This document shows, piece by piece, positions 8,194 through 54,743 of a stretch of 64,000 nt of DNA; the first letter of the stretch is position 1; each line of letters begins with the position of its first letter. The DNA lies in NCBI RefSeq assembly GCF_055900595.2, contig NZ_CM148325.1, one strand, 5' to 3'. The position numbers and the translations under genes were made by a program. The notes beneath the pieces are model-generated. The model had not been told where the DNA came from. It saw nothing but the letters and a program-made list of their open reading frames with translations, and made no database searches.

Positions 8194-9624
8194 TTATTTG
8201 CTATTCGCTTTACGCGCCAGCAGCGGGAATATCAGCCCTAATCCCACCAGCACAAACGGCGTTGCAACATTCAGCGCCAACTGGAATGTCCACTCTGCGG
8301 TGAAGGCTTCCATTTTCGGGAAAATACCAGTCAGGCAGGCAAAAGCGGTAAAGGCAAAACACCAAATTCCGACGGTCATTGCCAGCGGCTTATTACGAAT
8401 AAAGACATATTCCGGCTTATATTTCTGCGCCAGGCGAACAACTGCAATAAATGCAACAAATACCCATAAATAACGCAGCGGCATCACTACCGAGTTAAGA
8501 TTCAACAGCCATTTATAGAGATTGTTCATATCACCGATGCTGAGAGTCGGCAGCATAATCAGGATCGCCACCAGCACCAGGGTCAGAAAATAGCCATTAA
8601 CGGGCGTACCAGATGCGTTGGTACGACATAAACTGGCAGGAATATATTTGCTGTCAGCATCGCCTAATAATACTTTAAGCGGCGCATCAATCGAGAATAC
8701 CAGCGCAGCTACTTGACCCAGAGTATTCGCAATGGCGTAAATCACCATTAAAGTATTACCCATGCTGTAATACTCGCCCAGCTTCTGGAAGGCGTAATAC
8801 TGGCCGTTGGTCATTAAGTCATCGGGAATATTGCGGGAGTCAAACATCATCCCCATTGCAAGCGATCCAAGGATCGCGCACACCGCAACCATCACCGCCA
8901 GGCATAACATCCCTTTTGGAAATTCTTTTCCTGGGTTGCGCGTTTGATTAACGTAGGGAGAAATCTTCTCTGCTCCACCAACCGCAAAGACCAGCATTGA
9001 AATAGTGGTAATGTAGGTAAAGTCGATATGAGGAATAAACGTTTCCCAGGTAATGTTTGTGGTCGCAATATGCACTTCAGTAATCGCAGGCGCGGTTACC
9101 GCCATCGCCACATACAGGAGCGACATAACAAACATCGCAATCCCTGCCACAGAACCGACGATTTTCAGCGATTTCATACCGCGTGAAGCAACCCACATAA
9201 AGAAGACAAACAGCACCAGCGTTAACCCCTGTAACGCTACGACGGAATATTCTTTGATTAACGAACCGTCGCCTTTCATCGCCCAACCGAGCGCAATCAG
9301 TATTGCCTGGGGTTTTTGTGCCAGATAGGGAATATGCACTACCCAGTAGGTCCACGCGGCGAGGTAAGCCAGTCCGGGTCCCATCGTGTGTTTAATCCAG
9401 GTACTGACCCCGCCCTTCCCATCTTTGAAGGTCGAGCCTAACTGACCAACAATTAGCGCATAAGGTGTGAAATAGAGCGCAAAGATAAACACCCATGAAA
9501 AAACAACCACCAGCCCCTGGTTGGCGTAGTTATTAACAACGTTGCCAAAACCCCAGACAGTGATAAAAGACATCAGCGCAATGTTGTACCATCGCAGCTG
9601 TTTTTCCTGAACATTCCCAGCCAT
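8194..9624 (-). CDS. ycaM: APC-family amino acid transporter-like membrane protein
   Basis: polytopic membrane protein; start set at MAGNVQEKQ (476 aa) rather than the longer six-frame ORF. Confidence 0.8.
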   Translation of the reverse strand: MAGNVQEKQLRWYNIALMSFITVWGFGNVVNNYANQGLVVVFSWVFIFALYFTPYALIVGQLGSTFKDGKGGVSTWIKHTMGPGLAYLAAWTYWVVHIPYLAQKPQAILIALGWAMKGDGSLIKEYSVVALQGLTLVLFVFFMWVASRGMKSLKIVGSVAGIAMFVMSLLYVAMAVTAPAITEVHIATTNITWETFIPHIDFTYITTISMLVFAVGGAEKISPYVNQTRNPGKEFPKGMLCLAVMVAVCAILGSLAMGMMFDSRNIPDDLMTNGQYYAFQKLGEYYSMGNTLMVIYAIANTLGQVAALVFSIDAPLKVLLGDADSKYIPASLCRTNASGTPVNGYFLTLVLVAILIMLPTLSIGDMNNLYKWLLNLNSVVMPLRYLWVFVAFIAVVRLAQKYKPEYVFIRNKPLAMTVGIWCFAFTAFACLTGIFPKMEAFTAEWTFQLALNVATPFVLVGLGLIFPLLARKANSK

Positions 9625-9833
9625 AGACAAATCCTTCGCCAAAATTAAAGGGGCATCTGTAAAACGAGGGATTATGCGCGGCAAATAAGAAGTGCGGAAA
9701 TAGCGAAATGCAAAATTATAACCTGCTGCACATTTTATTTTGAAACGAATAAAATTTTGAAAAAAGCAAGTCAGAGAGAAGAAACAAAAAAGCAGAGTGT
9801 GAAACAGTAAGTTCACACTCTGCGTTAATTCAT

Positions 9834-10982
9834 TTACACGTGAGCAACGGGTTTCGGCGTATGACCGGCGTTGCGAAGCAGCATCAGCAAATAGATAAAC
9901 GATACGCTGGCGATCATGATAAACAATAAATTATCGGAGAAATTCTGCATTAGCATGGCAGTAAATGACGGGCCAAGCAGACTTCCCACAGTATAGCTCA
10001 ACAGTAAGGCCTGGTTCATCGCCACCAGTTGATGATGTTCAACTTTCTCGCAAGCCCATGCCATCGCCACCGGATATAGCGTAAAGCCAGCGGCACCGAG
10101 GATGAATAACGCTGGGGCCATCGCCGCCTGGCTAAGCATCGCGATACTGCCGAGAATGACGACAAAGACCTGGACACGCAACACCAGCAGTCGACCAAAC
10201 TTATCCGCCAGACGTCCAATCGGCCATTGTCCAAGGATACCCGCACTGACCAGTACCGCCATCCAGAAACCAATGCTGGCATTGCTCACCCCTTTGTGAT
10301 TGAGGTACAGCGGCATCAGGCCATATAGAGATCCCAGAACGATTCCTGAGATAATGCAGCCATTCACGCCAAGCCGCGCCTGACGGAGTTTTAGCATGGA
10401 CGTAATTGACGTCGAATCATGGTTTTCAGCCTGCTGATTCAGCACACGCGTAAACAACAGCGGTAAGATCCCTGCCAACGTCAAACCTGTAACCCACGGC
10501 AATACGGACATCAGCTCGGTTGAAACTTTGCTGACCAGTAACTGGCCTAAAAACGTTCCCACGTAATAAACCATCATATACGCAGCAAGCAAACGCCCAC
10601 GGTTACGTGACGTCCCACTGCACATCAGCGCGCTCTCAACAACCACCCAAATCATGGCACAGCCGACGCCGGCGACAAAACGCCACGCCAACCAGCTCCA
10701 GAATCCAATCATCAGGCCAAGGCCGGCACAGCCAGCGGCAAAAATGAAGGAGGCCAGATAATAGCTGCGGTTAAAGCCAATGCGCTTAATGACATACCCT
10801 GTCAGCAATGTACCGACCAGGTTGCCGGTAAAATAGGATGAGCTGACAACGCCTACCTGCCATGTGGACATATGTTCCTGGGCGAGCCAAAGCGGCACGA
10901 GTGTATTTAACACTGCGATCGCCAAAGTCAACAAAAGCAGGCCAGACAGCAAAAGCATGACAGGCCGGGTATACGTGGACAT
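9834..10982 (-). CDS. ycaD: MFS transporter
   Basis: 382-aa 12-TM protein in conserved position. Confidence 0.85.
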
Positions 10983-11296
10983 GAATTAAAACCGTGAGGA
11001 AGTTCAAATTTCATGCGCATCATGCCACCGCCAAAAACATTGTCAATGGGTGAAAATACGCGCATATCGCAGCTGAGGTATTATCGATTTATATTACTCA
11101 TTCATAACGCTAATGCTGGAGAGACGATTAATCTCATCTGATTGTTTTTATTGATCTAACACAAATTTCATACGCTTCGTTCAGTCGAAAAATTTCATGG
11201 TCACAGCAAACTCATATTTCCCGTCTATGCTTTCAGAGCAATGCATCGCGTCTGACCGATTTCAGACGTACCGCTGACTCTCGAAAGGAGAAGAGG

Positions 11297-11923
11297 ATGA
11301 CCAAACCGTATGTTCGTCTCGATAAAAATGATGCTGCCGTTTTGCTTGTTGATCACCAGGCTGGTTTACTTTCCCTTGTACGGGATATTGAACCCGATAA
11401 GTTTAAAAATAACGTGCTGGCGCTGGGCGACTTAGCTAAATACTTCAACTTACCAACAATTCTTACTACCAGTTTTGAAACCGGCCCTAACGGCCCATTA
11501 GTTCCGGAACTGAAAGCACAGTTCCCTGATGCACCTTACATTGCTCGCCCGGGAAATATTAACGCCTGGGATAACGAAGATTTTGTGAAAGCGGTAAAAG
11601 CGACAGGTAAAAAACAATTGATTATCGCTGGTGTGGTAACCGAAGTTTGCGTTGCGTTCCCGGCACTTTCGGCAATTGAAGAAGGGTTTGATGTCTTTGT
11701 CGTGACTGACGCGTCAGGAACCTTTAACGAAATTACCCGGCACTCGGCGTGGGATCGAATGTCGCAAGCGGGTGCGCAATTGATGACATGGTTCGGCGTG
11801 GCGTGCGAGCTGCATCGCGACTGGCGTAATGATATTGAAGGACTGGCGACGTTGTTCTCTAACCATATTCCTGATTATCGTAATTTGATGACCAGTTATG
11901 ACACGTTAACGAAGCAGAAATAA
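11297..11923 (+). CDS. ycaC: isochorismatase-family hydrolase
   Basis: 208-aa ORF, conserved position between ycaD and dmsC. Confidence 0.85.
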   Translation: MTKPYVRLDKNDAAVLLVDHQAGLLSLVRDIEPDKFKNNVLALGDLAKYFNLPTILTTSFETGPNGPLVPELKAQFPDAPYIARPGNINAWDNEDFVKAVKATGKKQLIIAGVVTEVCVAFPALSAIEEGFDVFVVTDASGTFNEITRHSAWDRMSQAGAQLMTWFGVACELHRDWRNDIEGLATLFSNHIPDYRNLMTSYDTLTKQK

Positions 11924-11958: not shown

Positions 11959-12822
11959 TTAACTTGCGACGGCCATCCCCACGGTCATATGCAAACCATA
12001 GAATACGCCACGACCGATTAATTCCCCTGCCAGAAGCAGAATGAATGATACGGAAAGTAGCGGAACCGCAGGCTGATAACCTTTTAGCTGTGGTGCAATC
12101 CACAAGCACAGGGCAACAGCCAAAAGCACGATCCGCCAGGACATCAGCGCACCATAGTCCGGCACCAGCGCTGCGGCCTGCTGCACAGAGCTATGAATAG
12201 TCGCCAGCTCTGCGCCCTGCATCACTGACACCTCGCCACTCACTACCAGGGCCAGTACAGAAATAGCTGGCAGCAGACGCATCGCCCAGCCATCGACGCC
12301 AGCCAGACTCAGTAACAGGTAACCCAGTAACGGGCCGCCCATGAACATCGTCAGGAAGAAGCCCATCGGTGTCCAGATGCTGTACCAGGTGGGTACGGTA
12401 TCGATGCTGTTATAGACACGCACCATCATCCAGACAAAGACTACGCCAAGAACCATCGTCACCACCAGCCACAGCGTACGCAATGCCGGTGACAGCTTTT
12501 TCAGCATTGCCAGTAACCAGCCGATGCCACCAACAGCAAAAAAGATCGAACCGCTGGCGATTTCGTTACTGAGTGCTGAAGCCCCTACCCGGTTGAGCGA
12601 GTTAAAGGCGCGCATCGGTGAACCAAGATGAAGCATAGAGGCGATAAAGCCAATACCCATCAGCACCCATAAGCCAAACATGCAGGCAATAACACGCTGC
12701 TGGGCTTCTGCTCGCAGGTCGCCTTTGAGCAGCGCCAAAGCCAGAACGATAAAACCACCTGCTACACATTGCCCGAAGACCGTGAAGATCATCAGCGGCC
12801 ATTCATGCCATCCACTTCCCAT
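11959..12822 (-). CDS. dmsC: DMSO reductase membrane anchor subunit
   Basis: 287 aa from MGSGWHEWPLMIF; 8-TM protein downstream of dmsB. Confidence 0.9.
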   Translation of the reverse strand: MGSGWHEWPLMIFTVFGQCVAGGFIVLALALLKGDLRAEAQQRVIACMFGLWVLMGIGFIASMLHLGSPMRAFNSLNRVGASALSNEIASGSIFFAVGGIGWLLAMLKKLSPALRTLWLVVTMVLGVVFVWMMVRVYNSIDTVPTWYSIWTPMGFFLTMFMGGPLLGYLLLSLAGVDGWAMRLLPAISVLALVVSGEVSVMQGAELATIHSSVQQAAALVPDYGALMSWRIVLLAVALCLWIAPQLKGYQPAVPLLSVSFILLLAGELIGRGVFYGLHMTVGMAVAS

Positions 12823-12823
12823 C

Positions 12824-13441
12824 TCACACCTCCTTCGGGTTTGCCAGATAGCCAGTGGTATCCCCGGTCGGGCGGCTGTTGGCATTGGGTTTGATCACAA
12901 TATTCGGTTTGGTAAAGTGAGCTCGCGGCAACGGCGCAACAGCCGCCAAATCGCCATGTTTTTTACGCAGCTCGTCGATAGGGCCGAAATCCAGCGCCCG
13001 CAGCGGGCAAGATTCAACACAGATCGGCTTCTTCCCCTCCGCAACACGGTCATAACAACCATCGCATTTGGTCATATGGCCTTTCGTTTCGTTATATTGC
13101 GGTGCGCCATACGGGCAAGCCATATGGCAGTAACGGCAGCCAATGCATACATCTTCATCGACCACAACAAAACCATCTTCACGTTTATGCATCGCACCGC
13201 TCGGGCAGACTTTAGTACAAGCCGGATCTTCGCAGTGGTTACATGAAATCGACAGATAGTAGGCAAACACGTTCTGGTGCCAGACACCGTTATCTTCCTG
13301 CCAGTCGCCGCCAGCATATTCATAAATGCGGCGGAAACTGACTTCTGGCGTCAAATCTTTGTAGTCTTTACAAGCCAGCTCGCAGGTTTTGCAACCGGTG
13401 CAACGGCTGGAATCAATAAAAAATCCATACTGGGTTGTCAT
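12824..13441 (-). CDS. dmsB: DMSO reductase iron-sulfur subunit
   Basis: 205 aa with four CxxCxxCxxxCP ferredoxin-type motifs. Confidence 0.93.
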   Translation of the reverse strand: MTTQYGFFIDSSRCTGCKTCELACKDYKDLTPEVSFRRIYEYAGGDWQEDNGVWHQNVFAYYLSISCNHCEDPACTKVCPSGAMHKREDGFVVVDEDVCIGCRYCHMACPYGAPQYNETKGHMTKCDGCYDRVAEGKKPICVESCPLRALDFGPIDELRKKHGDLAAVAPLPRAHFTKPNIVIKPNANSRPTGDTTGYLANPKEV

Positions 13442-13451
13442 CGGTTACTCC

Positions 13452-15896
13452 TTACACCTTTTCAACCTGAACAAGGTTTGTATGTGACGGATTCCCCTTA
13501 GCGAGAGGAGACGGACGTTGAGTGGTCAGTACGTTGATACAACCGCCCTTATCGACACGTTTTGCATCCGGGTCATACCAGGCACCTTCACCCAGTGCGA
13601 CCACACCCGGCATCATTCGTGGCGTCACTTTCGCCTCAATATGAACCTCACCACGATCGTTAAAGATCCTGACTTTATCGCCGTTGTTGATACCGCGTTT
13701 TTGCGCATCAAGCGGGTTGATCCACATTTCCTGACGGCAAGCCGCTTTCAGCACATCAACGTTGCCGTAAGTTGAGTGAACGCGAGATTTATAGTGGAAA
13801 CCCGTAAGCTGCAGCGGATATTGTTTGTTCAGCGGATCCTGATAACTTTCAAAGCCCGGCGTGTAGATCGGCAGTGGATCGATCACATCGCCTTCTGGCA
13901 ATTCCCAGGTAGCGGCAATGTCAGCAAGCGCCTGCGAATAAATCTCAATTTTACCCGATGGCGTGGTCAGTGGATTTGCCTGCGGATCTTCACGGAAGGC
14001 TTTATAAGCAACGTGATGCCCTTGTGGGTCGCGCTTTTTAAAGATCCCCTGCTTGCGGAACTCTTCAAACGTTGGCAGTTCAGGAATCGCTTCCCGCGAC
14101 TGGGCATACAGATGCCGCATCCACTCTTCCTGTGTACGGCCTTCAGTAAACTGTTGCTCAACGCCAAGACGTTTTGCCAGTTCGCTGGTCATTTCATAGA
14201 TGGTCTTACATTCAAAGCGCGGTTTAATCACCTGATCGTTGAAAATCACGTAAGACATATTCCCGCAGGATGCATCCAGTGCAAAGTCCATCTGTTCGGA
14301 AGCGGTGCAGTCAGGCAGCAGGATGTCAGCATATTTCGCCGATGAAGTCATGTGGCAGTCGATAACCACAATCAGCTCGCACTTCTTATCATCCTGAAGG
14401 ATTTCATGGGTACGGTTGATTTCAGAATGCTGGTTAATCAGGCAGTTACCGGCATAGTTCCAGATCATTTTGATCGGCACATCCAGCTTATCTTTCCCGC
14501 GCACACCATCACGCAGCGCTGTCATTTCCGGGCCTCGTTCAATGGCATCGGTCCACATAAACATCGAAATGCTGGTCTGGATCGGGTTTTCGAGGGTCGG
14601 CATACGGACAAAAGGTAAGCTGTATGAACCTTCACGCGCGCCGCTGTTGCCCCCGTTAATACCAACGTTACCGGTCAGAATCGCCAGCATCGAGATAGCA
14701 CGGGTTGCGATTTCACCGTTAGCGTGACGCTGCGGGCCCCATCCCTGGCTGATAAACGCCGGTTTGGTACTACCGATTTCACGAGCCAATTTGATGATTT
14801 TGTCTGCCGGAACACCGGTGATTTGCGAGGCCCATTCCGGCGTTTTAGCCACGCCATCTGGCCCTTCACCCAGAATATAAGCTTTATAGTGACCATTTTT
14901 CGGCGCACTGGCTGGCAGTGTTTTCTCGTCGTAGCCAACGCAATATTTATCGAGGAATGCCTGATCCACCAGGTTTTCGGTGATCATGACATACGCCAGA
15001 CCGTTAACCAGTGCGGCATCTGTTCCCGGACGAATAGGGATCCACTCATCTTCGCGCCCGGCACCGGTGTCAGTATAGCGCGGATCGATGATGATCATGC
15101 GAGCATTAGATTTCTGGCGCGCCTGTTCAAGATAGTAAGTCACCCCACCGCCACTCATTCGCGTTTCGCCAGGGTTATTACCAAACAGCACTACCAGTTT
15201 ACTGTTTTCGATATCCGACGGGCTGTTACCATCTGCCCAGCCGCCGTAGGTATAGTTCAAACCTTCCGCAATTTGCGCGGAAGAGTAGTCACCGTAATGG
15301 TTCAGATAACCGCCGCAGCAGTTCATCAGGCGAGCGACCAGGGTATTTCCCGGCGGCCAGGAGCGGGTCATGGTGCCGCCCAGCGTACCGGTACCATAGT
15401 TCAGATAGATAGACTCGTTGCCGTACTCTTTGATCAGGCGCTGCATATTGGTCGCGATGATGTCGTAGGCTTCTTCCCAGCTAATGCGCTCGAATTTGCC
15501 TTCACCGCGCGCCCCGACTCGTTTCATCGGATATTTCAGGCGGTCCGGATTGTAGACACGGCGACGCATGGAACGCCCACGCAGACAGGCGCGCACCTGG
15601 TGCAGGCCGTCATAGTTGTCATCGCCGGTATTATCCGTTTCAACATATTTAATTTCACCGTCCACAACGTGCATACGTAGCGGGCAGCGGCTACCACAGT
15701 TAACTGTACAGGCGCTCCAGATTACCTTTTCGTCTGACTTTGCCGGAAGGGCACTATCAACAGCGTGCGCAATCCGACTAAAAGGTAATGTTAATGCGCT
15801 GCTGGCCATTGCCAGGCCGCCGATCGCTGTCGTTTTTACCAAACCACGGCGACTCACCTCAGCAGCCAATACCGCATCAGGGATTTTCGTTTTCAT
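13452..15896 (-). CDS. dmsA: DMSO reductase catalytic molybdopterin subunit
   Basis: 814 aa; N-terminal twin-arginine signal (SRRGLVKTTAIGGLAMA). Confidence 0.95.
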   Translation of the reverse strand: MKTKIPDAVLAAEVSRRGLVKTTAIGGLAMASSALTLPFSRIAHAVDSALPAKSDEKVIWSACTVNCGSRCPLRMHVVDGEIKYVETDNTGDDNYDGLHQVRACLRGRSMRRRVYNPDRLKYPMKRVGARGEGKFERISWEEAYDIIATNMQRLIKEYGNESIYLNYGTGTLGGTMTRSWPPGNTLVARLMNCCGGYLNHYGDYSSAQIAEGLNYTYGGWADGNSPSDIENSKLVVLFGNNPGETRMSGGGVTYYLEQARQKSNARMIIIDPRYTDTGAGREDEWIPIRPGTDAALVNGLAYVMITENLVDQAFLDKYCVGYDEKTLPASAPKNGHYKAYILGEGPDGVAKTPEWASQITGVPADKIIKLAREIGSTKPAFISQGWGPQRHANGEIATRAISMLAILTGNVGINGGNSGAREGSYSLPFVRMPTLENPIQTSISMFMWTDAIERGPEMTALRDGVRGKDKLDVPIKMIWNYAGNCLINQHSEINRTHEILQDDKKCELIVVIDCHMTSSAKYADILLPDCTASEQMDFALDASCGNMSYVIFNDQVIKPRFECKTIYEMTSELAKRLGVEQQFTEGRTQEEWMRHLYAQSREAIPELPTFEEFRKQGIFKKRDPQGHHVAYKAFREDPQANPLTTPSGKIEIYSQALADIAATWELPEGDVIDPLPIYTPGFESYQDPLNKQYPLQLTGFHYKSRVHSTYGNVDVLKAACRQEMWINPLDAQKRGINNGDKVRIFNDRGEVHIEAKVTPRMMPGVVALGEGAWYDPDAKRVDKGGCINVLTTQRPSPLAKGNPSHTNLVQVEKV

Positions 15897-16066
15897 AATG
15901 GCTCACTCAAGCTTGCTCACGATTGATTCCAGTAACAAACCGTATTGTGTAATTATTTCTATAGCAGGTCGCTATATAGGCTTGTATATATCGAATAATT
16001 TGAAAATCAAAGAGATATGTAGATTTTCACTCGAAAGTAGTATTACGTGTAAGTGAGGAGTAATTA

Positions 16067-16080
16067 TTGTTCGGTATCAA
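16067..16080 (-). promoter_or_regulatory. FNR-box-like site upstream of dmsA (TTGATACCGAACAA on the minus strand)
   Basis: matches TTGAT-N4-ATCAA consensus with one mismatch; lies 12 bp from the prophage att core. Confidence 0.5.
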
Positions 16081-16091
16081 AGGGAGACAAA

Positions 16092-16106
16092 AAAAGCGCC
16101 CGCAGG
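16092..16106. repeat. att core copy, integrase-proximal
   Basis: exact 15-mer shared with 53386..53400. Confidence 0.8.
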
Positions 16107-16192
16107 AGATTTAACGGTACTTACTCCTCTTGCTGATTTCCTTATTTTTCAATAAGTAAACAAAAACAAGGGGAGCAAATTATCACAAATAA

Positions 16193-17197
16193 TTACTGGT
16201 CGATGGACAGTTTATGGACACTTTCAGCCAGCGGATTAAAGCTGATCGCATCCTGTAAAAAGTCCGGTGAAAAATGCGCATACGTCATCGTTTGCTGAAT
16301 CGTGGCGTGACCCAGGATCCTCTGCAACGTGACGATGTTCCCGCCGTTCATCATGAAATGCGTGGCGAACGTGTGCCGCATGACATGCGTGGCCTGCCCT
16401 TTGGGTAAGTCGGGCTTCACCTCCTGAAGGATCTCCCTGAAACTGAGATAATCAACCTGATATAACAGGCCGGTCCGGCGGGTTTTAATTAACGGCACAA
16501 CGGAATCAGCTACAGGAACCGAGCGCGATTTCCCGTTCTTTGTGTTAAAGAACGTCACCCTGTTACCCACGATGTGTTCCCCGCGAAGCGTTGACGCCTC
16601 TTTCCATCTGGCCCCGGTCGAAAGGCACAGAATGGCAATGCGTCGTGCATCACCCTCAAGCCGTTTCAGAAGGCGATCAATCTCGTCATCTGAAAGAAAG
16701 GCCATTTCTGTATTCTGAACCTTGAGTTTACGTATTCCGCGCACAGGGTTTTCGTTATGATAAACCTCCGCGTCAATTAACAACGAAAACATCGCAGATA
16801 AGGCGCACAGGTCGCGATTGATACTGGACGGCATCAGTCCCGCCTGCAACTTATCCGAGCGATACTCAATCACGAATTTTCGTGTCATCTGGCTGGCGCG
16901 CGGGTCCCCCATTTCACGTATCACCTTCTCCAGTCTGGTTCTGTAGGTATCACCATATGCCTGATTACGACCATCAAGCATCCACCACACCTCAATCAGT
17001 TCTGATAACCGCCGTTGATCGGCGGGCCTTGCCTGCCACGGGTTATTGTGGAAATTCTGAAGAACGTATCTTTCGAATTCCTGCGCCTTTGATTTCAGGG
17101 TGAAAATCTTACGAATCCGCCTTCCTCCCGCCCCCTGAGGCCTTACATCAACCTGATAACGTCCGTCTTTGAGTTGCTTAATCGACATGATCAGCAC
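16193..17197 (-). CDS. int: P2-family tyrosine integrase
   Basis: P2 Int-like sequence (KQLKDGRYQVDVRP..., ILCLSTGARW..., catalytic region HVMRHTFATHFMMNGGNIVTLQRILGH...YAHF); true start may be the MSIKQL Met. Confidence 0.9.
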   Translation of the reverse strand: MLIMSIKQLKDGRYQVDVRPQGAGGRRIRKIFTLKSKAQEFERYVLQNFHNNPWQARPADQRRLSELIEVWWMLDGRNQAYGDTYRTRLEKVIREMGDPRASQMTRKFVIEYRSDKLQAGLMPSSINRDLCALSAMFSLLIDAEVYHNENPVRGIRKLKVQNTEMAFLSDDEIDRLLKRLEGDARRIAILCLSTGARWKEASTLRGEHIVGNRVTFFNTKNGKSRSVPVADSVVPLIKTRRTGLLYQVDYLSFREILQEVKPDLPKGQATHVMRHTFATHFMMNGGNIVTLQRILGHATIQQTMTYAHFSPDFLQDAISFNPLAESVHKLSIDQ

Positions 17198-17257: not shown

Positions 17258-17599
17258 TCAGCCAGCATTGCGGCCTGATTGGGGTGATTTTTGGGTATTG
17301 CGGGTTGAAACCTGATCGTCCTCCGACTGCGTGGAGCCATCAAGAGAGAGAGCCGGGGCGATCTGACCGGCAACAGGTAGCGTCTTATCTTTGATTAGCC
17401 AGAACATATATTTTTCAAACCGATCCACTTGAAGGACGGCCTCAACAATCTTTGCTCTGGCGATCTTTTGCCCTGACTCATAATTCCTGACAGTTGCCAG
17501 AGATAACCCTGTAATATCAGCAAATTGCTTTTGAGTTAGCCCTTCCGTCTTGCGTATCAAACGCAACTTTTTCGCATAGTCTATTGACAAGATACTCAT
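17258..17599 (-). CDS. P2 C-type immunity repressor
   Basis: 113 aa, HTH (LTQKQFADITGLSLATVRNYESG) and GQIAPAL motif resembling P2 C; divergent from the early operon. Confidence 0.8.
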   Translation of the reverse strand: MSILSIDYAKKLRLIRKTEGLTQKQFADITGLSLATVRNYESGQKIARAKIVEAVLQVDRFEKYMFWLIKDKTLPVAGQIAPALSLDGSTQSEDDQVSTRNTQKSPQSGRNAG

Positions 17600-17702: not shown

Positions 17703-18224
17703 ATGCGGGAGATTATTGCCGACAAAGAGTTATCTGGCGCTCAACCGGTTCAGGATGATGGCGCGGACAATGAATTCATTGAAGCTGCCAACGACAACGA
17801 ACACCTGGAAACCAAAACCAGACCGTCCTACAAAAAGGGCGCAACCCTACGACTGGACGGCCCAGTCGCAGGACTTGTGTCACTGGAAAAAGGGGCTGCC
17901 TATCTGGGGGTAACAAAATCTGCGCTACGCGCCGCCATTCAGCGCGGGCAGATGCCGGGTCACAAAACGCGCTCAAATCCCGAAGATGAAAAGTCAGACG
18001 GTACATGGTGGTTTAACGCCAAAGCCTGGGACGAACTAGCCGACGAACTACTGGAGTGCGAACCGCCAGAGTGGCACAACTGGAAAAGCTACTGGACGTA
18101 CGACCGCAAGAAAAGAAAGTTTTCACCGGCAAACAAGGAGGACTGCCAGACCGTTAAAGGTAAGCAGGTTTACTCCCCCAGAGTTTCAAAACTGGAGCAA
18201 CTCAAAAACAACCAGCCCGGCTAA
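17703..18224 (+). CDS. first early-operon gene, HTH protein (Cox/excision-control analogue, putative)
   Basis: position equivalent to P2 cox; HTH-like segment LGVTKSALRAAIQRGQMPG; longer than P2 Cox. Confidence 0.5.
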   Translation: MREIIADKELSGAQPVQDDGADNEFIEAANDNEHLETKTRPSYKKGATLRLDGPVAGLVSLEKGAAYLGVTKSALRAAIQRGQMPGHKTRSNPEDEKSDGTWWFNAKAWDELADELLECEPPEWHNWKSYWTYDRKKRKFSPANKEDCQTVKGKQVYSPRVSKLEQLKNNQPG

Positions 18225-21547: not shown

Positions 21548-21638
21548 GTAACCACTATGCACACACAAAAAAACCGCTTGCCATGCCGCAATCAGTCAGG
21601 TTACATTTCCGCTGCACCTCATAAAACGGGTGCCGGGA

Positions 21639-21833
21639 TTGCAACCCCCGCTGACAACTACAGCGCACAACCGCGCCAGCGGTTTTTTTGTGCGTACCGT
21701 ATCGCCACGTCTTTTTCGCGCCAGAATTATGGCGGGGCGTATGGGGCCGACTTCGGTCGGGCCGGTTTCTGTAGTTGCCGGTGGTTGCAACCCTGTACGT
21801 CTCGCCACCCAGAATTGCAACCTCTGGATGGTG
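21639..21833. repeat. TTGCAAC direct repeats (4 copies; three at ~30-bp spacing upstream of the 21868 gene)
   Basis: copies at 21639, 21766, 21796, 21827 in a ~320-bp noncoding stretch. Confidence 0.6.
21669..21690 (+). terminator. hairpin plus T-run (ACCGCGCCAGCGGTTTTTTT)
   Basis: GC stem followed by seven T. Confidence 0.45.
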
Positions 21834-42540: not shown

Positions 42541-45500
42541 CTAATCTCTGTCACGGAAACTACCGACTGTCTGGCGGATACGGCGTTCCATTTCCGCACG
42601 GACGGCATCACCCACCATTTTTGCCAGTTCGCGCGGGTTTTGCGTGTGAACATCATGCAGGTGAATATGCAGTTCGCCAGTTAATCCCCATGGTGCCGGC
42701 TCACTCTGGCGCGGTCGGGGCGATGCGGGGGATATGGGCTGGCGCACAGCCTCAACCACCGGACGGGATGTTGCCGCCATCACTGGTGTCATTAGCGGGG
42801 AGAACGTCGGCATGACATCGTGAGTCATAACCGGTTTGATCACCGGCGGAACCACTGGCGTAATATTACCGGACAGTACCGGACGGACGACCGGAGGAAT
42901 AACCGGCACATTATTCACGGACACCACCGGCTTCACGACCGGCGACACGTTCGCCGTGGTGGATATCAGCGGCGAAACACTGACAGGCGGTGGCGCTGGC
43001 AGCGGTGGCAACGAAGGCACACTGACCGACGGCACCTGCGGCAGTCTGACAGGTGGCTCACTGACACTACCCGGTAACAGGGAAGCTGCTCGGTTAAAGC
43101 GTTCCTCCTTCCACTCACCACGAACGGCCAGCGCTTCCGGCAGGTTTTTAAAGATAATATCGCCGGGACCAGCGCGTTTTTTCGCCTGTTTCGCCTCATC
43201 CAGCAGACCACCGGTGTTATCGACGATTTTGTTCAGGCGGCGCATAGTGCCGGTATTCTCCCCCGTCAGGGGTGGTTGCCCCCCTTTGGGTTTTTCGCCG
43301 TCTTTTTTATCCTCGTCCTTTTTCGGCGGATTAATGACGTTAACATCCGCCAGAAGCATGGCAGCTTTCTCGTTCAGCAACTCCTTCTGTTTTAGTTCTT
43401 CCGCCTTTTTCCGGGCGCGCTCAACCGCCGACGGAATCAGCCCGAGTTTTTCCAGCACCCGGGTTAATGAGTCAATCAGCAGCGTAACCGGACCGGTCAC
43501 CAGATTGCTGATAAACTCCCCGACCTTCTGCCCGAACGTACGCCCGGCTTCCGTGCACTTGTCCAGCTCATCCTTTGTTGTGCTTACCGGCGCGAACAAA
43601 TCCACGAACCACTGCCACACACGCCCGATTGTCTGCCCGACATACTCAAACAGCGGTCCCAGTGGTGCCACAGCCTCGCGCAGTGGCGTAAGCCCCTGCC
43701 ACAGGCCGGACAAGAACCCGCCCACGACAGCCTTCAGCTGGTCCCAGTGCCGCCAGATAAGCACTGCCGCACCGACCAGTGTCGCCACCACAAGGCCCAC
43801 CGGACTTAACAGAAAACCCAGCGCCCCGCCAAGTGCGCCCACCGCACCACTCACCATCCCCCACAGTGCGGGCAGACCTGACAGTCTGAGCGCCAGTATT
43901 CCGATACCGCGCCCCAGTGAAATCAGTGCGCCGCCAGGTGAAGTGAACGCAGCCAGCAGACCACCACGCAGCGCGCCAAGTCCCGCCTGCACACCACGAA
44001 GCCGCCCCGCAACTACGCCCAGCAGTGCAGCAAACCGTCCGGCACCGGAGGTGATACCGACAAACAGCACGCGCCAGCCACCGATACCGCCCAGCGGACC
44101 ACCGAGTACGCCGCGCAGCTGCGTCAGTAACGGCAGCGCACGACCGAGGCCGGATGTGCCGGTCAGCAGGGCAAACCCAAGACGCAGTTTTGCCAGCGGC
44201 CCCATCAACACACCAGTGGCAAGTGACAGCGCCCCCATGGCCGCAACCGCAGCCAGCAGTACACCACCGGCAATCAGCAGTTGTTTTGTCAGTTCAGGGT
44301 GCGCCTGAGCCAGCGCGGTGACTTTCGCAATAACCCGGGTGAACGACTGCGTGACAGAACGCAGCGGCCCGTCAACGAGGTCAGCGACACGGATACGCAG
44401 TCCTTCCCATGCGCTGTTCAGTGATTTCAGGTCACCGTCCAGGTTATCAGCCATAACACGGGCAGTGTGATTAAGTTCCCCGGTGGCCAGTTCAATCTCC
44501 TGCGTAAGACGGGGAAGATTATTTTCCCCCGCCGCAGTGACAAGATTCATCAGGGAAACATAGGACTCCTGCCCGGCAATAGCCCTGAAAAAGGAGACCT
44601 GCGCGGCATTACCGTATTTTCGGGTGGCCTGGTACAGCTCATTCAGGATATTTTCCATCCGGCGCATGTTCCCGTAAGCATCCTGCGTCTCCACGCCAAG
44701 CTCTTTCAGTGCCATTGCAGCGGCCTTCGGCGGATCAACCAGACGTGACAGACTGGCACGCAGCGCCGTACCTGCATCACTTCCACGGATCCCCACACTG
44801 CCAAGGACACCCGTCATGGCTGCCGCCTGTTCAAGGGACAGGCCAAGTGAAGCTGCAACCGGACCCGTGTACTTCATGGTTTCACCCAGCGAACGGAGAT
44901 CCGTATTGGTTCGTGTGAAGGTGGCGGCCAGCGTGTCACCCACGCGATCCATCTGGTCAGCGGACAGACCAAACTGTGTGAGGATATTCGAACTGATATC
45001 GGCAGTCTGTCCCAGGTCCATCCCTGCAGCCATTGCCAGATCAAGCACGCCGGGTAGCGCCGCCTGTATGGCCTGTGGTGTGAAGCCGGCCATGGCAAGG
45101 AACGCCTGACCGCTGGCAGCATCACCGGCGGTAAACTGCGTTTCAGAGCCCAGCTTAATGGCCTGTTCGCGCAGCGCCTTAAACTGCGGACTGTTTTTGT
45201 CAATACGGGTCAGCGCCTGGACGCGCGACATCTCCTTACCAAAACTGACCGCCGGTTGCAGGAAACGTCCGGCCGCATAGCCGCCTGCCGCCGCCGTACC
45301 AACCGCCGTAAGTCCGACCGTTTTAAGTTTTCCCGCCGTCTCCTGAGCACGGGAATATTGCTGGCGTGCCTGCGTGACACGTGCCAGCGCCTGCCGTTCG
45401 CGTTCCAGCTGGTCGTTGTATTGCTGTGTTCGCCGTATGGCCTGTTGAATGGTGTTGTCACTGCCGGAAAGCGCAATACCGTGGCGCCGCAGCTCACCAC

Positions 45501-45852
45501 CCAGTTCGCGCATTCGCTGAACTTCACGCGCACGGACCTCATTGAGACGCTCAAGTTTGAGGCTCAAATCGTTCATCAGCTTTTTCTGTTTGTCAGACAG
45601 CACGGTTCCGGCGCGCTGAATTTGCTGAAGTGCGCTTAACTGGCGTTGCGCCCTGACAATGCCGTTTCCGGCCTTGTTTGCAGCCTCGCGGGCGCGATCA
45701 AATGAACGGGCGTGGCGTTCCAGGTTTTTGATCGCACCCTGCGTTCTCTGTATGGAGTCGCCAAGCTGGCCCATCATGCGACGGGCGTTTTCGGTGGGAC
45801 GGGTCAGCCTGTCAACAGCGCTGAAGGCGACCCGTATATCAAGCGTTTTCAT
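42541..45852 (-). CDS. T: tail tape measure protein (P2 gpT family), extended
   Basis: about 1100 aa; start taken at MKTLDIRVAF where E' terminates; C-terminal Pro/Val-rich repeat region. Confidence 0.85.
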   Translation of the reverse strand: MKTLDIRVAFSAVDRLTRPTENARRMMGQLGDSIQRTQGAIKNLERHARSFDRAREAANKAGNGIVRAQRQLSALQQIQRAGTVLSDKQKKLMNDLSLKLERLNEVRAREVQRMRELGGELRRHGIALSGSDNTIQQAIRRTQQYNDQLERERQALARVTQARQQYSRAQETAGKLKTVGLTAVGTAAAGGYAAGRFLQPAVSFGKEMSRVQALTRIDKNSPQFKALREQAIKLGSETQFTAGDAASGQAFLAMAGFTPQAIQAALPGVLDLAMAAGMDLGQTADISSNILTQFGLSADQMDRVGDTLAATFTRTNTDLRSLGETMKYTGPVAASLGLSLEQAAAMTGVLGSVGIRGSDAGTALRASLSRLVDPPKAAAMALKELGVETQDAYGNMRRMENILNELYQATRKYGNAAQVSFFRAIAGQESYVSLMNLVTAAGENNLPRLTQEIELATGELNHTARVMADNLDGDLKSLNSAWEGLRIRVADLVDGPLRSVTQSFTRVIAKVTALAQAHPELTKQLLIAGGVLLAAVAAMGALSLATGVLMGPLAKLRLGFALLTGTSGLGRALPLLTQLRGVLGGPLGGIGGWRVLFVGITSGAGRFAALLGVVAGRLRGVQAGLGALRGGLLAAFTSPGGALISLGRGIGILALRLSGLPALWGMVSGAVGALGGALGFLLSPVGLVVATLVGAAVLIWRHWDQLKAVVGGFLSGLWQGLTPLREAVAPLGPLFEYVGQTIGRVWQWFVDLFAPVSTTKDELDKCTEAGRTFGQKVGEFISNLVTGPVTLLIDSLTRVLEKLGLIPSAVERARKKAEELKQKELLNEKAAMLLADVNVINPPKKDEDKKDGEKPKGGQPPLTGENTGTMRRLNKIVDNTGGLLDEAKQAKKRAGPGDIIFKNLPEALAVRGEWKEERFNRAASLLPGSVSEPPVRLPQVPSVSVPSLPPLPAPPPVSVSPLISTTANVSPVVKPVVSVNNVPVIPPVVRPVLSGNITPVVPPVIKPVMTHDVMPTFSPLMTPVMAATSRPVVEAVRQPISPASPRPRQSEPAPWGLTGELHIHLHDVHTQNPRELAKMVGDAVRAEMERRIRQTVGSFRDRD

Positions 45853-46002
45853 GCTCTGCGTTCCCGCTGCGAAGGGCCGCCCGCTCACGCCAGGCGACCA
45901 CCTCGCCGGGATCCATCAGGAAGATTTCAGCGGGAGACCAGTTGAAAATAACGGCGATATCCGCCACAAAGTCTTCAATGTGCTCAAAGGGCACGACGGT
46001 TA

Positions 46003-49420: not shown

Positions 49421-49672
49421 ATGTTCCGTTGTCCCCTATGCGGTGCATCCGCACGTATCCGCACCAGTCGCAATGAAAATGATTCAGGCACAGTTCGCCT
49501 GAAGTACTACCAGTGCAATAACCTCGAATGCGGGATCGGCTTTACCACACTGGAGGGTTTTAACAAATTCACATCAAAACGCGCCCCGTCGCCGCAGGGT
49601 ACAGAGCGGATACCGTGGGAAGATTTTCCGGGATCTCACAGGGGGAATACTCAGATTAATCTTGATATTTAA
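49421..49672 (+). CDS. ogr: Ogr/Delta-family zinc-finger late transcription activator
   Basis: 83 aa; CPLC...C..NLEC zinc-binding arrangement like P2 Ogr. Confidence 0.85.
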   Translation: MFRCPLCGASARIRTSRNENDSGTVRLKYYQCNNLECGIGFTTLEGFNKFTSKRAPSPQGTERIPWEDFPGSHRGNTQINLDI

Positions 49673-49784
49673 GAACAATAATCAGGTTGAGAGGACATCA
49701 TAAGGCAAGTAGATTAACGGCAGATACTTTCCCGCAACCACGGGCAAGTATTTAATTATCCATGATGAAATATGACCTAAATTG

Positions 49785-49817
49785 TTTTTTGCCCGCCGGA
49801 AAGCGGGCATTTTTTTA
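49785..49817 (+). terminator. terminator hairpin copy 1 (GCCCGCCGGAAAGCGGGC plus T-run)
   Basis: first of nine near-identical hairpins in 49.8-53.0 kb. Confidence 0.7.
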
Positions 49818-50030
49818 TTCTTTTGTGGTTATGGGGTCATCAGGAACCACGTGCAGATTATATTTTTGTTTTTTTGGCGTTCCTCCGGCAGCAACGAGTT
49901 CATCAATAAGACACTGACACGCCTGAACATCCCGGGCATGTCTTAGTTTCACCTTTATTGATTTAACCTTATCCTCACCGGAGGAGAAATGCAGTTCAAT
50001 CTCAATATCGTTTCTTCGGAACAATCTCAT
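49815..50030 (-). CDS. 71-aa hypothetical protein, intact copy of a repeated gene
   Basis: MRLFRRNDIEIELHFSSGEDKVKSIKVKLRHARDVQACQCLIDELVAAGGTPKKQKYNLHVVPDDPITTKE; decayed paralogues at 51101..51199 and 51784..51855. Confidence 0.55.
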   Translation of the reverse strand: MRLFRRNDIEIELHFSSGEDKVKSIKVKLRHARDVQACQCLIDELVAAGGTPKKQKYNLHVVPDDPITTKE

Positions 50031-50123
50031 ACGCCCCCTGAATATATCAGAAATACTAGTATCGAAAAATGAGAAAACAGTTAGACAGGAGAAACATATT
50101 AACACAAATCATTTATACCTATA

Positions 50124-50141
50124 GATGAAATTATAATTTCA
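50124..50141. promoter_or_regulatory. perfect 18-bp palindrome ATGAAATTATAATTTCAT with embedded TATAAT
   Basis: about 95 bp upstream of the 71-aa gene; related imperfect palindromes upstream of the decayed copies. Confidence 0.55.
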
Positions 50142-50250
50142 TTCATGAATATGATAGATAACTATATTGTGAACAAAATGAAAAATGGCTAAATTAAAAA
50201 TGGGCATGGAGGAATGCCCGGTTATCAATATAATGTGACGTAGATCATTG

Positions 50251-50281
50251 TTTTGCCCGCCGGAGAGCGGGCATTTTTTTT
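50251..50281 (+). terminator. terminator hairpin copy 2
   Basis: GCCCGCCGGAGAGCGGGC plus T7. Confidence 0.7.
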
Positions 50282-50450
50282 GCGCCTGCCATCGAGGCGC
50301 CTTCCCTGGCGCACACAAAGCAGCCCTGATTTTCCATGAAAACTTCAGGGTTGAGCTGCGGGCACAAAGTGAGTAGATTAGCTACGGGTACCTCCCCCTG
50401 ACAACAGGAAGGGTGTCCATTATCCATGATATACAAACGAAAAGTCTTGT
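50282..50450 (+). ncRNA. repeated ~170-nt structured module S1 (candidate small RNA)
   Basis: bounded by terminator hairpins; internal hairpins (GCGCC..GGCGC, CCCTGA..TCAGGG, CCTTCC..GGAAGG); four paralogous copies. Confidence 0.35.
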
Positions 50451-50481
50451 TTTTTGCCCGCCGAAGCGCGGGCATTTTTTT
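50451..50481 (+). terminator. terminator hairpin copy 3
   Basis: GCCCGCCGAAGCGCGGGC plus T-run. Confidence 0.7.
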
Positions 50482-50607
50482 ATGCATCAGACAAGATACA
50501 GCCCACCCCAACTGACACCTGAAATATTGCCGCAACAAAAAGAAACAGTTAAATTACGCGCGGGTGCCTTTCGGCTGATGGCCGGAGGGAAAACCTGAAG
50601 GCCGGAT

Positions 50608-50841
50608 GTGGAAAGGCCCCGGAAAACATTTCTGTTTAACCGAGGCCCTAACCGCATTACCTTGACAAGTGAAAGGTTAGCGCCTCTCCGGAAAAGGAGC
50701 AAGTGCTATGTCGCAAAAATCGCTTACGGCCATCACGTTCTGCGTGACGGCAATCCTCATCATCTGGATATTGCACGGTTCGCTGTGCGAAATACGGATG
50801 AGCTTCTGGGGAGCGGAGTTTGCGGCGTTCTTACAATGTAA
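50608..50841 (+). CDS. mok-like overlapping reading frame of hok locus
   Basis: 77-aa ORF starting upstream of and overlapping the hok-like frame, as in hok/mok/sok loci. Confidence 0.5.
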   Translation: MERPRKTFLFNRGPNRITLTSERLAPLRKRSKCYVAKIAYGHHVLRDGNPHHLDIARFAVRNTDELLGSGVCGVLTM

Positions 50842-50848
50842 GAAGTAA
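50708..50848 (+). CDS. hok: Hok/Gef-family type I toxin (intact)
   Basis: 46 aa MSQKSLTAITFCVTAILIIWILHGSLCEIRMSFWGAEFAAFLQCKK; single TM plus conserved SLCEIR motif; 5' GGGTGCCT (50552) complementary to 3' AGGCACCC (50906). Confidence 0.8.
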   Translation: MSQKSLTAITFCVTAILIIWILHGSLCEIRMSFWGAEFAAFLQCKK

Positions 50849-50934
50849 GGAAACCGCGACGGGGGAGCAATCCCCCGTCAATCGGTTGCCAGGGTAAGGT
50901 CGATAAGGCACCCTATCTCACAGACATGAACAAC

Positions 50935-50970
50935 AAACCCGCAGCATAAAAACTGCGGGTTTTCTTTTTG
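50935..50970 (+). terminator. rho-independent terminator of hok transcript
   Basis: AACCCGCAG-CATAAAAA-CTGCGGGTT followed by TTCTTTTT. Confidence 0.7.
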
Positions 50971-51100
50971 GTGTCCTCACCGACTTGAAACAGTGATCAG
51001 ACTATAAGACAAAGCCCGCAATGTTGCGGGCTTACTCTACCTCTCGAAAATGTGGTCACTGCGTGGACATACGCTGATACAAATCCTTTATATCAATAAA

Positions 51101-51199
51101 TTAAATCTTTGTTTTTTTCATCAACAATGATTTAACCTTATCCTCACCGGAGGAGAAATGCAGTTCAATCTCAATATCGTTTCTGTGGAACAGCCTCAT
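51101..51199 (-). pseudogene. truncated paralogue of the 71-aa gene
   Basis: MRLFHRNDIEIELHFSSGEDKVKS then divergent and stop after 32 codons; retains AGGAGG RBS. Confidence 0.55.
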
Positions 51200-51414
51200 A
51201 AGACAACCTCCTGAATTCATCAGAAACACAGTCAACTGAAAACCAGAAAGCAGACAAACAGTGGACACACATTAATACAAATCATTTATACCTATAGATG
51301 AAATTGCAGTTTCATCTATAACATGACAGGTAACAATATTGTGAAAAAACTCAAAACTCGTTAGATTAAAGACGGACAGAGCAATGCTACTTTATCAATA
51401 ACATGTAACCTGTA

Positions 51415-51445
51415 CTTCCTTATTTTGCCCGCCGAAGCACGGGCA
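51415..51445 (+). terminator. terminator hairpin copy 4
   Basis: GCCCGCCGAAGCACGGGC plus T-run. Confidence 0.7.
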
Positions 51446-51621
51446 TTTTTTTTGCGCCTGCCATCGAGGCGCCTTCCCTGGCGCACACAAAGCAGCCCTG
51501 ATTTTCCATGAAAACTTCAGGGTTGAGCCAAAAGCACAAAGACAGTAGATTAACCACGGGTGCCTTCCACCTGACAACAGGAAGGGTGTCCAGTATCAAT
51601 GACAGACAACTCACATTGCTG
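51446..51621 (+). ncRNA. structured module S2
   Basis: paralogue of S1. Confidence 0.35.
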
Positions 51622-51651
51622 TTTTGCCCGCCGGAAAGCGGGCATTTTTTT
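51622..51651 (+). terminator. terminator hairpin copy 5
   Basis: GCCCGCCGGAAAGCGGGC plus T-run. Confidence 0.7.
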
Positions 51652-51783
51652 ATTCTTTTGTGGTTATTGGGTCATCAGGAACAACATGCAGATTATGCTT
51701 TGATTTTTTTGGTGTTATTACAGCAGCAACGAGTTTATTAATAAGACACTGACATGCCTGAACATCCCTGACATATCATAATT

Positions 51784-51855
51784 TCACTTTATTTTTTTAG
51801 CTTGTCCTTTCTGGAGCAGAAATATCTCAACATCGTTTCTGTGGAACAACCTCAT
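51784..51855 (-). pseudogene. decayed paralogue of the 71-aa gene
   Basis: MRLFHRNDVEIF then frameshift; 3' region still alignable to the intact copy. Confidence 0.5.
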
Positions 51856-52071
51856 TTGCCCCTGAATGTATCATAAATATCAGCATCGGAAAACCAACAG
51901 CAATACAGAAGAAACATGTTAATGCAAATCACTTATACCTATAGATGAAATTACAGTTTTGTTCATAAATATGATAAGTAACTATATTGTGAATAAAATG
52001 AAAACTAGCTAAATTAAACGTGGGCATGGTGGAATGCCTCGTAATCAATAATACATGATCCGTACTTCCTT

Positions 52072-52102
52072 GTTTTGCCCGCCGGAAAGCGGGCATTTTT
52101 TT
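52072..52102 (+). terminator. terminator hairpin copy 6
   Basis: same hairpin. Confidence 0.7.
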
Positions 52103-52270
52103 GGCGGTTACCATCGCCTCACCTTCCTGGTTCACATGAAGCAACCCTGATTTTCCATGAAAACTTCAGGGTTGAGACAAAAGCACAAAGACAGTAGATT
52201 AACCACGGGTACCTTCCACCTGACAACAGGAAGGCTGTCCAGTATCAATGACAGACAACTCACATTGCTG
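52103..52270 (+). ncRNA. structured module S3
   Basis: paralogue of S1/S2. Confidence 0.35.
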
Positions 52271-52299
52271 TTTTGCCCGCCGGAAAGCGGGCTTTTTTT
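52271..52299 (+). terminator. terminator hairpin copy 7
   Basis: same hairpin, T-run after GGGC. Confidence 0.7.
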
Positions 52300-52471
52300 G
52301 GCAGTTATCATAGCCGCACCTTCCTGGCACATATGAAGCAACCCTGATTTTCCATGAAAACTTCAGGGTTGAGACAAAAGCACAAAAACAGTAGATTAAC
52401 CACGGGTGCCTGCCACCTGACAACAGGAAGGGGTGTCCATTATCCATGATATACAAACGAAAAGTCTTGTC
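52300..52471 (+). ncRNA. structured module S4
   Basis: paralogue, 3' end like S1. Confidence 0.35.
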
Positions 52472-52501
52472 TTTTGCCCGCCAAAGCGCGGGCATTTTTT
52501 T
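52472..52501 (+). terminator. terminator hairpin copy 8
   Basis: GCCCGCCAAAGCGCGGGC plus T-run. Confidence 0.7.
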
Positions 52502-52712
52502 ATGCATCAGACAAGATACAGCCCACCCCAACTAACACCTGAAATATTGCCGCAACAAAAAGAAACGGGTGCCTTTCGGCTGATGGCCGGAGGGAAAACC
52601 TGAAGACCGGATGTGGAAAGGCCCCGGAAAACATCTGTGTTTAACCGAGGCCTGACCCTTCCTACCGTGACAAGTGGAAGGTTAGCGCCTCTTTGTAAAA
52701 GGAGCAAGCGCT

Positions 52713-52853
52713 ATACCGCAAAAAACGATTATTGTTGGCATTTTATGCCTGACAATAACCCTGGTCATCTGGATGGTCCACGATTCGTTATGTGAATTCA
52801 GCTTTGATATCTGAGGAGCGCGTTTTGCGGCGTTCTTGCAGTGTAAACCGTAA
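52713..52853 (+). pseudogene. hok-like toxin pseudogene (second copy)
   Basis: paralogous to 50708..50848 but start codon is ATA and an in-frame TGA replaces the Trp codon; mok-like frame 52613..52795 retained. Confidence 0.7.
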
Positions 52854-52948
52854 GAAACCGCAGCGGGGGAGAAATTCCCCGCTATCCGGTTGTTGGGGTG
52901 GGCCGATATGGCGCCCTTTCCCTGTAGAGACAAAACAAAAAACCAGAT

Positions 52949-52975
52949 TTGCCCGCCATTGAGAGGGCTTTTTTG
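52949..52975 (+). terminator. degenerate terminator hairpin copy 9
   Basis: GCCCGCCATTGAGAGGGC plus T6. Confidence 0.45.
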
Positions 52976-53003
52976 TCACCCTCACCAGTGAGGGCATCAT
53001 CAT

Positions 53004-53231: not shown

Positions 53232-53385
53232 CCCCTCCCTTTGGTTCGTTGCACTGACGGCACGACACCATCAGGAAAAAGAAAAGCCCACAACGTCAGT
53301 ATTGTGGACTTTTTTCTTCAAAGATGGACATTATCTGGACACATGAAAATAAAATCCATTTATTTTCATATAGTTAAGTACCATG

Positions 53386-53400
53386 CAAAAGCGCCCGCAG
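53386..53400. repeat. att core copy, serS-proximal (forms the serS terminator hairpin)
   Basis: AAAAGCGCCCGCAGG identical to 16092..16106; continues as GCGCTTTTT. Confidence 0.8.
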
Positions 53401-53429
53401 GCGCTTTTTAGATTCAGAAAAATTGGGTA

Positions 53430-54743
<1,314 letters not shown>

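Follow-up and report, generated by a model that had tools for sequence, protein, structure and literature searches.

Evidence for a P2-family prophage site-specifically integrated in the serS terminator next to the dmsA P1 FNR box, with FNR control of dmsABC likely preserved

Phages integrate in symmetric targets, such as the 3' ends of tRNA genes and terminators, and the attP sequence carried by the phage restores the target (Campbell; Williams 2002, as cited in PMC3603311). In the P2-like phages, the lysogenic operon starts with C, and of the switch promoters Pc is the weaker one (PMC1904263); the arm-type repeats of P2-type integrases follow the consensus tgTGGaCa (PMC3448106). With respect to the region between serS and dmsA, a 38.6-kb P2-family prophage (“P88”, GI-3) was reported in 2025 to lie “downstream of serS” in the ST131 strain NS30 (PMC12632120), and the serS prophage site is therefore already on the descriptive record. 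The same paper mislabels serS, which encodes seryl-tRNA synthetase, as a serine recombinase, and dmsA does not occur in its main text. Our search for literature on serS and dmsA in connection with a prophage or an integrase returned no paper, and the description of ST131 GI-3 was the only report found on the site. PhiECO1 of E. coli HS (916–948 kb, PMC3448106) was considered as an occupant of the serS site and rejected, since it sits at rcdA/ybjL and carries a 186-type cI.

Here, we analyzed a stretch of 64,000 nucleotides from contig NZ_CM148325.1 (assembly GCF_055900595.2), referred to as the window, for which a preliminary description had claimed a prophage in the serS terminator with a 15-bp att core. 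The window runs inverted relative to the K-12 map, with the gene order rarA, serS, prophage, dmsA, dmsB and dmsC on the minus strand (Table 1). The sequence AAAAGCGCCCGCAGG constitutes a 15-bp direct repeat with exactly two copies, both on the plus strand; they mark the two ends of the prophage, and the terminator hairpin is found at the serS-proximal copy, as had been claimed. To rebuild the empty site, positions 15850–16106 were joined to 53402–53650, and the resulting 506-bp serS|dmsA sequence occurs uninterrupted, at 100% identity, in at least nine E. coli genomes. Across the site, K-12 MG1655 reads ...CTAAAAAGCGCCTGCGGGCGCTTTTTTTGTCTCCCTTTGATACCGAACAA..., the same as the rebuilt sequence. 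The core repeat is identical at both junctions and the empty site is precise, in keeping with a P2-type element, and because the rebuilt site equals a natural contiguous sequence, including that of K-12 MG1655, the prophage boundaries are exact. The comparison with an unoccupied serS-dmsA region, which the preliminary description had proposed as a check, thus places the core at the junction with 100% identity. The shortness of the repeat is all that speaks for the reading that it is a coincidence and that the real prophage ends lie elsewhere. Allowing two mismatches, only 0.19 matches are expected by chance, and three or more matches arose in none of 100 shuffles; moreover, exact deletion between the repeats restores natural empty sites at 100% identity, which refutes coincidence and reduces its probability to practically nil.

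Table 1. Positions of the genes and sequence elements discussed for the serS–prophage–dmsA locus, numbered from the first letter of the window.
Feature	Position	Strand	Remarks
dmsC	11959–12885		After dmsA
dmsB	12824–13441		After dmsA
dmsA coding sequence	13452–15896	−	From the ORF list; named dmsA in matching E. coli records
Presumed ModE-type palindrome CGCTATATAGGCTTGTATATATCG in the dmsA leader	15970–15993		On the dmsA side of the junction, not displaced
Rfam RF02084 (STnc130) match	15987–16121	+	Runs antisense to the leader and promoter of dmsA; the att hairpin forms its 3' hairpin
FNR box TTGATACCGAACAA of class II dmsA P1	16067–16080	−	Single occurrence in the window
int-proximal att core copy, attR (serS-to-dmsA orientation)	16092–16106	+	About −60 to −74 of dmsA P1
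P2-like (Peduoviridae) prophage body, 37.3 kb	16107–53386		From the TUM1886 prophage annotation and intact long ORFs
Phage DNA between core and int stop codon	16107–16192		Terminator-like sites absent from the int strand
Pair of P2-type Int arm-type direct repeats, GATGGACA and TATGGACA	16202–16220	+	Overlap the int 3' end
Tyrosine integrase gene int	16193–17197	−	Transcribed toward the att core and dmsA
C-type immunity repressor gene (HTH)	17258–17599	−	Upstream of int, same strand
cox family gene	17703–18224	+	Divergent from C; Pfam Phage_Cox; Cox family in the matching record
ogr/Delta-type zinc-finger late activator gene	49421–49672	+	Last conserved phage gene before cargo and attL
Phage-borne bidirectional terminator-like hairpin	53282–53313		In serS sense, 74–105 bp past the core
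Int arm-type repeats of the opposite arm (three), TGTGGACT, GATGGACA and TCTGGACA	53303–53341	+	
serS-proximal att core copy, attL	53387–53401	+	
serS terminator hairpin AAAAGCGCC-CGCA-GGCGCTTTT	53387–53408		Starts 23 bases past the serS stop codon (serS sense)
serS coding sequence	53430–54722	−	
rarA	54813–56156	−	

The integrase encoded next to attR contains an arm-binding N-terminal region and a catalytic domain (Pfam Int_N, 2.2e-30; Phage_integrase, 1.3e-17), and its alignment with P2 Int, at 50.9% identity, extends over 99% of the length. The gene order was taken from the annotated TUM1886 prophage, the junctions of which are 99.0–99.6% identical to those of the window, and the ORFs were confirmed in the window. 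Following int, C and cox are genes for the replication endonuclease, portal, terminase, scaffold, capsid and lysis proteins, and later those for baseplate, fibre, sheath/tube, tape measure and gpD, with ogr toward the far end. This is the P2-type arrangement (int-C / cox-...-A, Q P O N M L, lysis, tail, D, ogr), where int occupies one prophage end and ogr the other, and some 3.7 kb of additional phage DNA extends from ogr to the attL core. Judged by its reading frames, the prophage looks intact. The tape-measure gene is an intact ORF of 1115 amino acids in the window (42541–45888), whereas in TUM1886 it is annotated as a truncated pseudogene (9415–11610 in that record), and integrity therefore varies among members of the prophage lineage to which the window belongs.

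Between ogr and the attL core, a region of about 3.3 kb (49700–53000) is made up of diverged direct repeats, for example a 174-nt unit in four copies and a 231-nt unit in two. A Hok/Gef-type ORF is located inside these repeats (50708–50848, plus strand), with an apparent decayed second copy near 52613–52850; the Rfam scan at gathering thresholds gave no hok/sok hit in the repeats, and the serS-side phage end (52600–53401) was without a match in the phage collection. In the early region of the prophage, Rfam hits for isrK (60.1 bits) and the C4 antisense RNA (80.1 bits) are adjacent to each other at 21614–21812 on the plus strand.

Of 5426 complete genomes, 344 (roughly 6%) carry the int|dmsA junction and 5077 the empty serS|dmsA site, scored as a match covering at least 80%; together, occupied and empty sites account for essentially all of the genomes. 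The locus is an ordinary, recurrent integration site of E. coli. Junction types were assigned with 66-bp junction queries, which leave about 34 of the 344 occupied genomes matching neither type. The junction type of the window, where the core is followed by AGATTTAACGG, is found in 25 genomes, as is its serS-side junction, and among the best 5 of the 25, all those with a named host or source come from chicken or chicken meat. The commoner type, where the core is followed by CGCTTTAACG, is found in 285 genomes; it also occurs in the E. albertii type strain and in ON470599 and PV468777, which are prophage cut-outs deposited as “phages”, the source of PV468777 being O25b:H4-ST131. The integrases of the two lineages share 90% protein identity, and the int-C DNA is about 81% identical. 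The prophage in the window is a distinct lineage of P2-type prophages at an already reported site. The close integrase matches listed do not include phage P88 itself, and “P88”, as used in the names of the records and in the paper, appears to denote the nearest phage. The predicted attP sequences of both lineages gave no exact match in IMG/VR and no excised form was found; the records recovered from phage collections are prophage cut-outs that still include dmsA. A 391-bp record assigned to “Chryseobacterium sp.” (CACSKA010000082.1) matches the dmsA leader/att/int junction of the commoner E. coli lineage, and is almost certainly a contamination.

Direct repeats that fit the P2-type arm consensus flank the core on both sides, all on the plus strand, and as far as can be read from the sequence, repeats and core together represent standard P2-type attL/attR anatomy. 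At 16107, the phage DNA starts with AGATTT, a two-mismatch copy of the host arm CGCTTT, and the distance from the core to int is 86 bp. The block of identity measures 15 bp in the phage of the window and 20 bp, AAAGCGCCTGCGGGCGCTTT, in the commoner lineage, where attL is CTAAAAAGCGCCTGCGGGCGCTTTAAGTAG and attR is CGTTAAAGCGCCTGCGGGCGCTTTTTTTGTC, such that the 20-bp block spans both hairpin arms. With AAATCTCC in place of AAAGCGCC in the phage arm, the block in the window is limited to 15 bp. Since CCTGCGGGCGCTTT is common to both lineages, the crossover should fall within it. We propose that attB corresponds to the loop and one arm of a palindromic, bidirectional intrinsic terminator located 23 bp past the serS stop codon, and that a P2-family temperate phage would have entered it through site-specific recombination by its tyrosine integrase. 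The inverted core-type sites for Int are probably provided by the palindromic arms, and the orientation of integration probably depends on the loop, TGCG, which is asymmetric.

On the serS side, the core copy runs on into CGCTTTTT, thereby forming the palindrome AAAAGCGCC-CGCA-GGCGCTTTT. In serS sense, the empty site is predicted by ViennaRNA to form a hairpin of −15.4 kcal/mol followed by U7, and the lysogen a hairpin of −15.1 kcal/mol followed by UUUUGCAU; the tail after the hairpin reads UUUUGCAUGG in the lysogen versus UUUUUUUG at the empty site, and UUUAAG in the commoner lineage. Based on such folding and on direct reading, we treat the hairpin as a bidirectional terminator. serS retains its hairpin because attP holds a copy of part of it, and the rebuilding of the terminator proposed in the preliminary description is accurate for the stem, which is kept at nearly the same energy, but not for the U-tract, which is cut from seven residues to four. 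The phage-borne hairpin about 75 bp further on would back up the serS terminator. This hairpin belongs to the P arm of the phage, where it shares bases with the Int arm-type site TGTGGACT; besides supporting the shortened serS terminator it could also end phage transcripts running toward serS.

On the dmsA side, the FNR box TTGATACCGAACAA differs at one position from the FNR consensus TTGAT-N4-ATCAA (PMC10845959), and it is the only site with at most one mismatch within 15897–16192. In K-12, dmsABC is directly activated by FNR from a class II promoter with the site at −41.5 (PMC3688515, Table 1 therein). From the FNR box through the core, the window is identical to K-12, and the FNR-like site noticed in the preliminary description is the same as this published functional site. 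The adjacency of box and core stands as well; the gap comprises 11 bases (16081–16091), and the 12 bp given earlier are thus accurate to one base. With the P1 transcription start placed, by inference, near 16032, the core spans −60 to −74 and the host sequence is intact from the start codon to about −74, a limit that follows from the FNR box being the K-12 site at −41.5. As had been described, the sequence further upstream, beyond about −74, is phage DNA; int is the last phage gene and faces dmsA. A sigma-70-like match (TTGTCT, 16-nt spacer, AATAAT) at 16063–16090 on the minus strand overlaps the FNR box just downstream of the core; it is the same at empty sites, and is a consensus match only. 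The palindrome CGCTATATAGGCTTGTATATATCG in the leader is one that we take to be of ModE type from its resemblance to the ModE consensus.

In the lysogen, the FNR box, the alpha-CTD landing region and the leader with the ModE-type palindrome would all remain with dmsA. Because the host stretch to −74 with these elements is unchanged, FNR-dependent anaerobic control of dmsABC is most likely preserved. It could be argued that upstream input is nevertheless lost, as every host base beyond −74 is displaced and any needed host element located there would have been moved 37 kb away. However, the empty site offers little for dmsA to lose: beyond −74 there is only the other hairpin arm, a 23-bp spacer and the end of the serS coding sequence, which makes such a loss very improbable. 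In addition, dmsA retains its FNR box and ModE-type palindrome as well as the bases from −60 to −74, and the insertion is carried by about 6% of E. coli genomes. Taken together, we consider it highly likely that a P2-family prophage is site-specifically integrated in the serS terminator, 11 bp upstream of the dmsA P1 FNR box, and that FNR control is likely preserved.

The int gene, co-oriented with dmsA, closes the lysogenic C-int operon. Beyond −74, dmsA is preceded by the P' arm of the phage and by the 3' part of int, and weak Pc transcription via C and int could enter dmsA in the lineage of the window. This raises the possibility of a lysogenic conversion, in which constitutive Pc-C-int read-through over the degenerate attR produces an FNR-independent (aerobic) DMSO reductase, or interferes with P1. 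We regard this as unlikely, although several features of attR are compatible with it: the co-oriented int lies only 86 bp from the core, the strand concerned carries no terminator-like site, and in int/dmsA sense the canonical hairpin is down to −1.1 kcal/mol and outside the minimum-energy fold (ViennaRNA), such that the U7 run persists without a stem. The hairpin is missing from attR in the window because the phage-derived arm has two substitutions. Between the int stop codon and the FNR box, a terminator scan detected no terminator-like site in the window lineage; this simple scan takes the U-tract into the stem via A/U pairs and so overlooks the hairpin at the empty site as well, and our calls rest on folding and direct reading. 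Since no intrinsic-terminator-like element lies between int and P1 in this lineage, low-level read-through is structurally possible.

Three considerations oppose a conversion of this type: (i) among the promoters of the P2 switch, Pc is described as the weaker one (PMC1904263), (ii) Rho-dependent termination may take place past the int stop codon and (iii) the terminator is rebuilt at the same place in the commoner lineage, where attR has the full hairpin with U7 and is flagged by the terminator scan in both orientations. As the commoner lineage rebuilds its terminator, read-through is no general property of phages at this site, and folding predicts that it should be blocked in the 285-genome lineage. 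An effect on dmsABC expression, as suggested in the preliminary description, is plausible for the lineage of the window, and a read-through effect large enough to be physiologically meaningful appears unlikely. The preferred reading remains integration with FNR control of dmsABC likely preserved.

The hairpin at attR also forms the 3' end of a match to the Rfam family STnc130, which was overlooked in the preliminary description and the sRNA status of which is putative. In the window, model positions 1–135 are matched at 127.8 bits (threshold 55), and at the empty site, with all eight stem pairs intact, the score is 142.3 bits; the decrease is due to the 3' hairpin being broken by the insertion. 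The last 15 nt of the match are phage DNA in the window, where the 3' terminator is no longer intact: of the eight pairs, two have become non-canonical, and AACGG stands in place of the U-tail. On the plus strand, the predicted hairpin energy changes from −14.1 kcal/mol at the empty site to −2.3 kcal/mol in the lysogen. The two attR substitutions would thus also leave the putative antisense STnc130 without its terminator.

The far-above-threshold Rfam match, its drop in score and the loss of the plus-strand hairpin could be taken to mean that STnc130 is the main functional target of the insertion, becoming inactive without its terminator or extending into int as an antisense RNA with retroregulation-like control of int. 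This seems improbable to us, since the listing of STnc130 beside dmsA (PMC3632133) is only as a “putative sRNA”, a scan of the STnc130 strand gave no promoter-like site, and the commoner lineage keeps the hairpin stem at attR; furthermore, the Rfam family may capture just the conserved dmsA promoter/leader together with the serS terminator. The 5' end of the STnc130 model (15987) falls within the ModE-type palindrome, which spans about +39 to +62 from the inferred P1 start, and that ModE might act on an antisense promoter rather than directly on P1 is pure speculation. A two-way coupling can also be envisaged for the 25-genome lineage, in which, with the sole terminator between int and dmsA lost through the two substitutions, the C-int transcript would be joined to dmsABC as a lysogenic conversion, resulting in an oxygen-independent DMSO/S-oxide reductase, and STnc130 would conversely extend into int and damp the integrase; from the sequence, we give this scenario a small chance.

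The analysis defines the attachment sites (attB, attL and attR) and the arm sites for a specificity group of P2-type integrases present in about 6% of complete E. coli genomes, the target of which, treated here as a bidirectional terminator, lies beside a well-studied FNR promoter. The two natural lineages differ in whether they re-insulate the dmsA promoter, and provide a ready natural pair for prophage read-through on a respiratory operon. DmsABC was recently tied to stress survival in uropathogenic E. coli (PMC12096835), and altered DmsABC expression in lysogens, if true, would for this reason be of some interest. The practical value is modest.

Finally, the locus can be set against known systems. 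For the 3' context of int, sib retroregulation in lambda is a parallel, and Bertani is said to have put forward a “split-operon” idea for P2 int; by analogy, integration at serS would alter the int 3' context between prophage and free phage. As with symmetric targets of other phages, attB here has the form of a palindromic hairpin, and through the phage copy the upstream gene retains its 3' structure. Restoration is, however, incomplete in the window, since the serS U-tract is shortened and the bidirectional terminator is lost in one direction. With coliphage P2, the prophage shares (i) a tyrosine Int gene beside attP, transcribed toward attP and downstream of C, and (ii) tgTGGaCa arm repeats on both arms, and it has an intergenic, non-tRNA target, as is the case for P2-type integrases (PMC3448106). 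It differs from P2 in that Int is only 50.9% identical, with another core specificity and site, and in that the 37.3-kb prophage has ogr separated from att by roughly 3.3 kb of additional repetitive, hok-like cargo. The prophage also resembles GI-3 of the ST131 strain NS30 (PMC12632120), ON470599 and PV468777, which share with the window the attB site, the orientation with int beside dmsA and the P2-type int-C-cox module, with Int proteins 90% identical. In contrast to this group, to which the int-C DNA is only 81% identical, the window has a 15-bp instead of a 20-bp block, two hairpin-abolishing substitutions in the phage arm of attR and a different ogr-proximal end.
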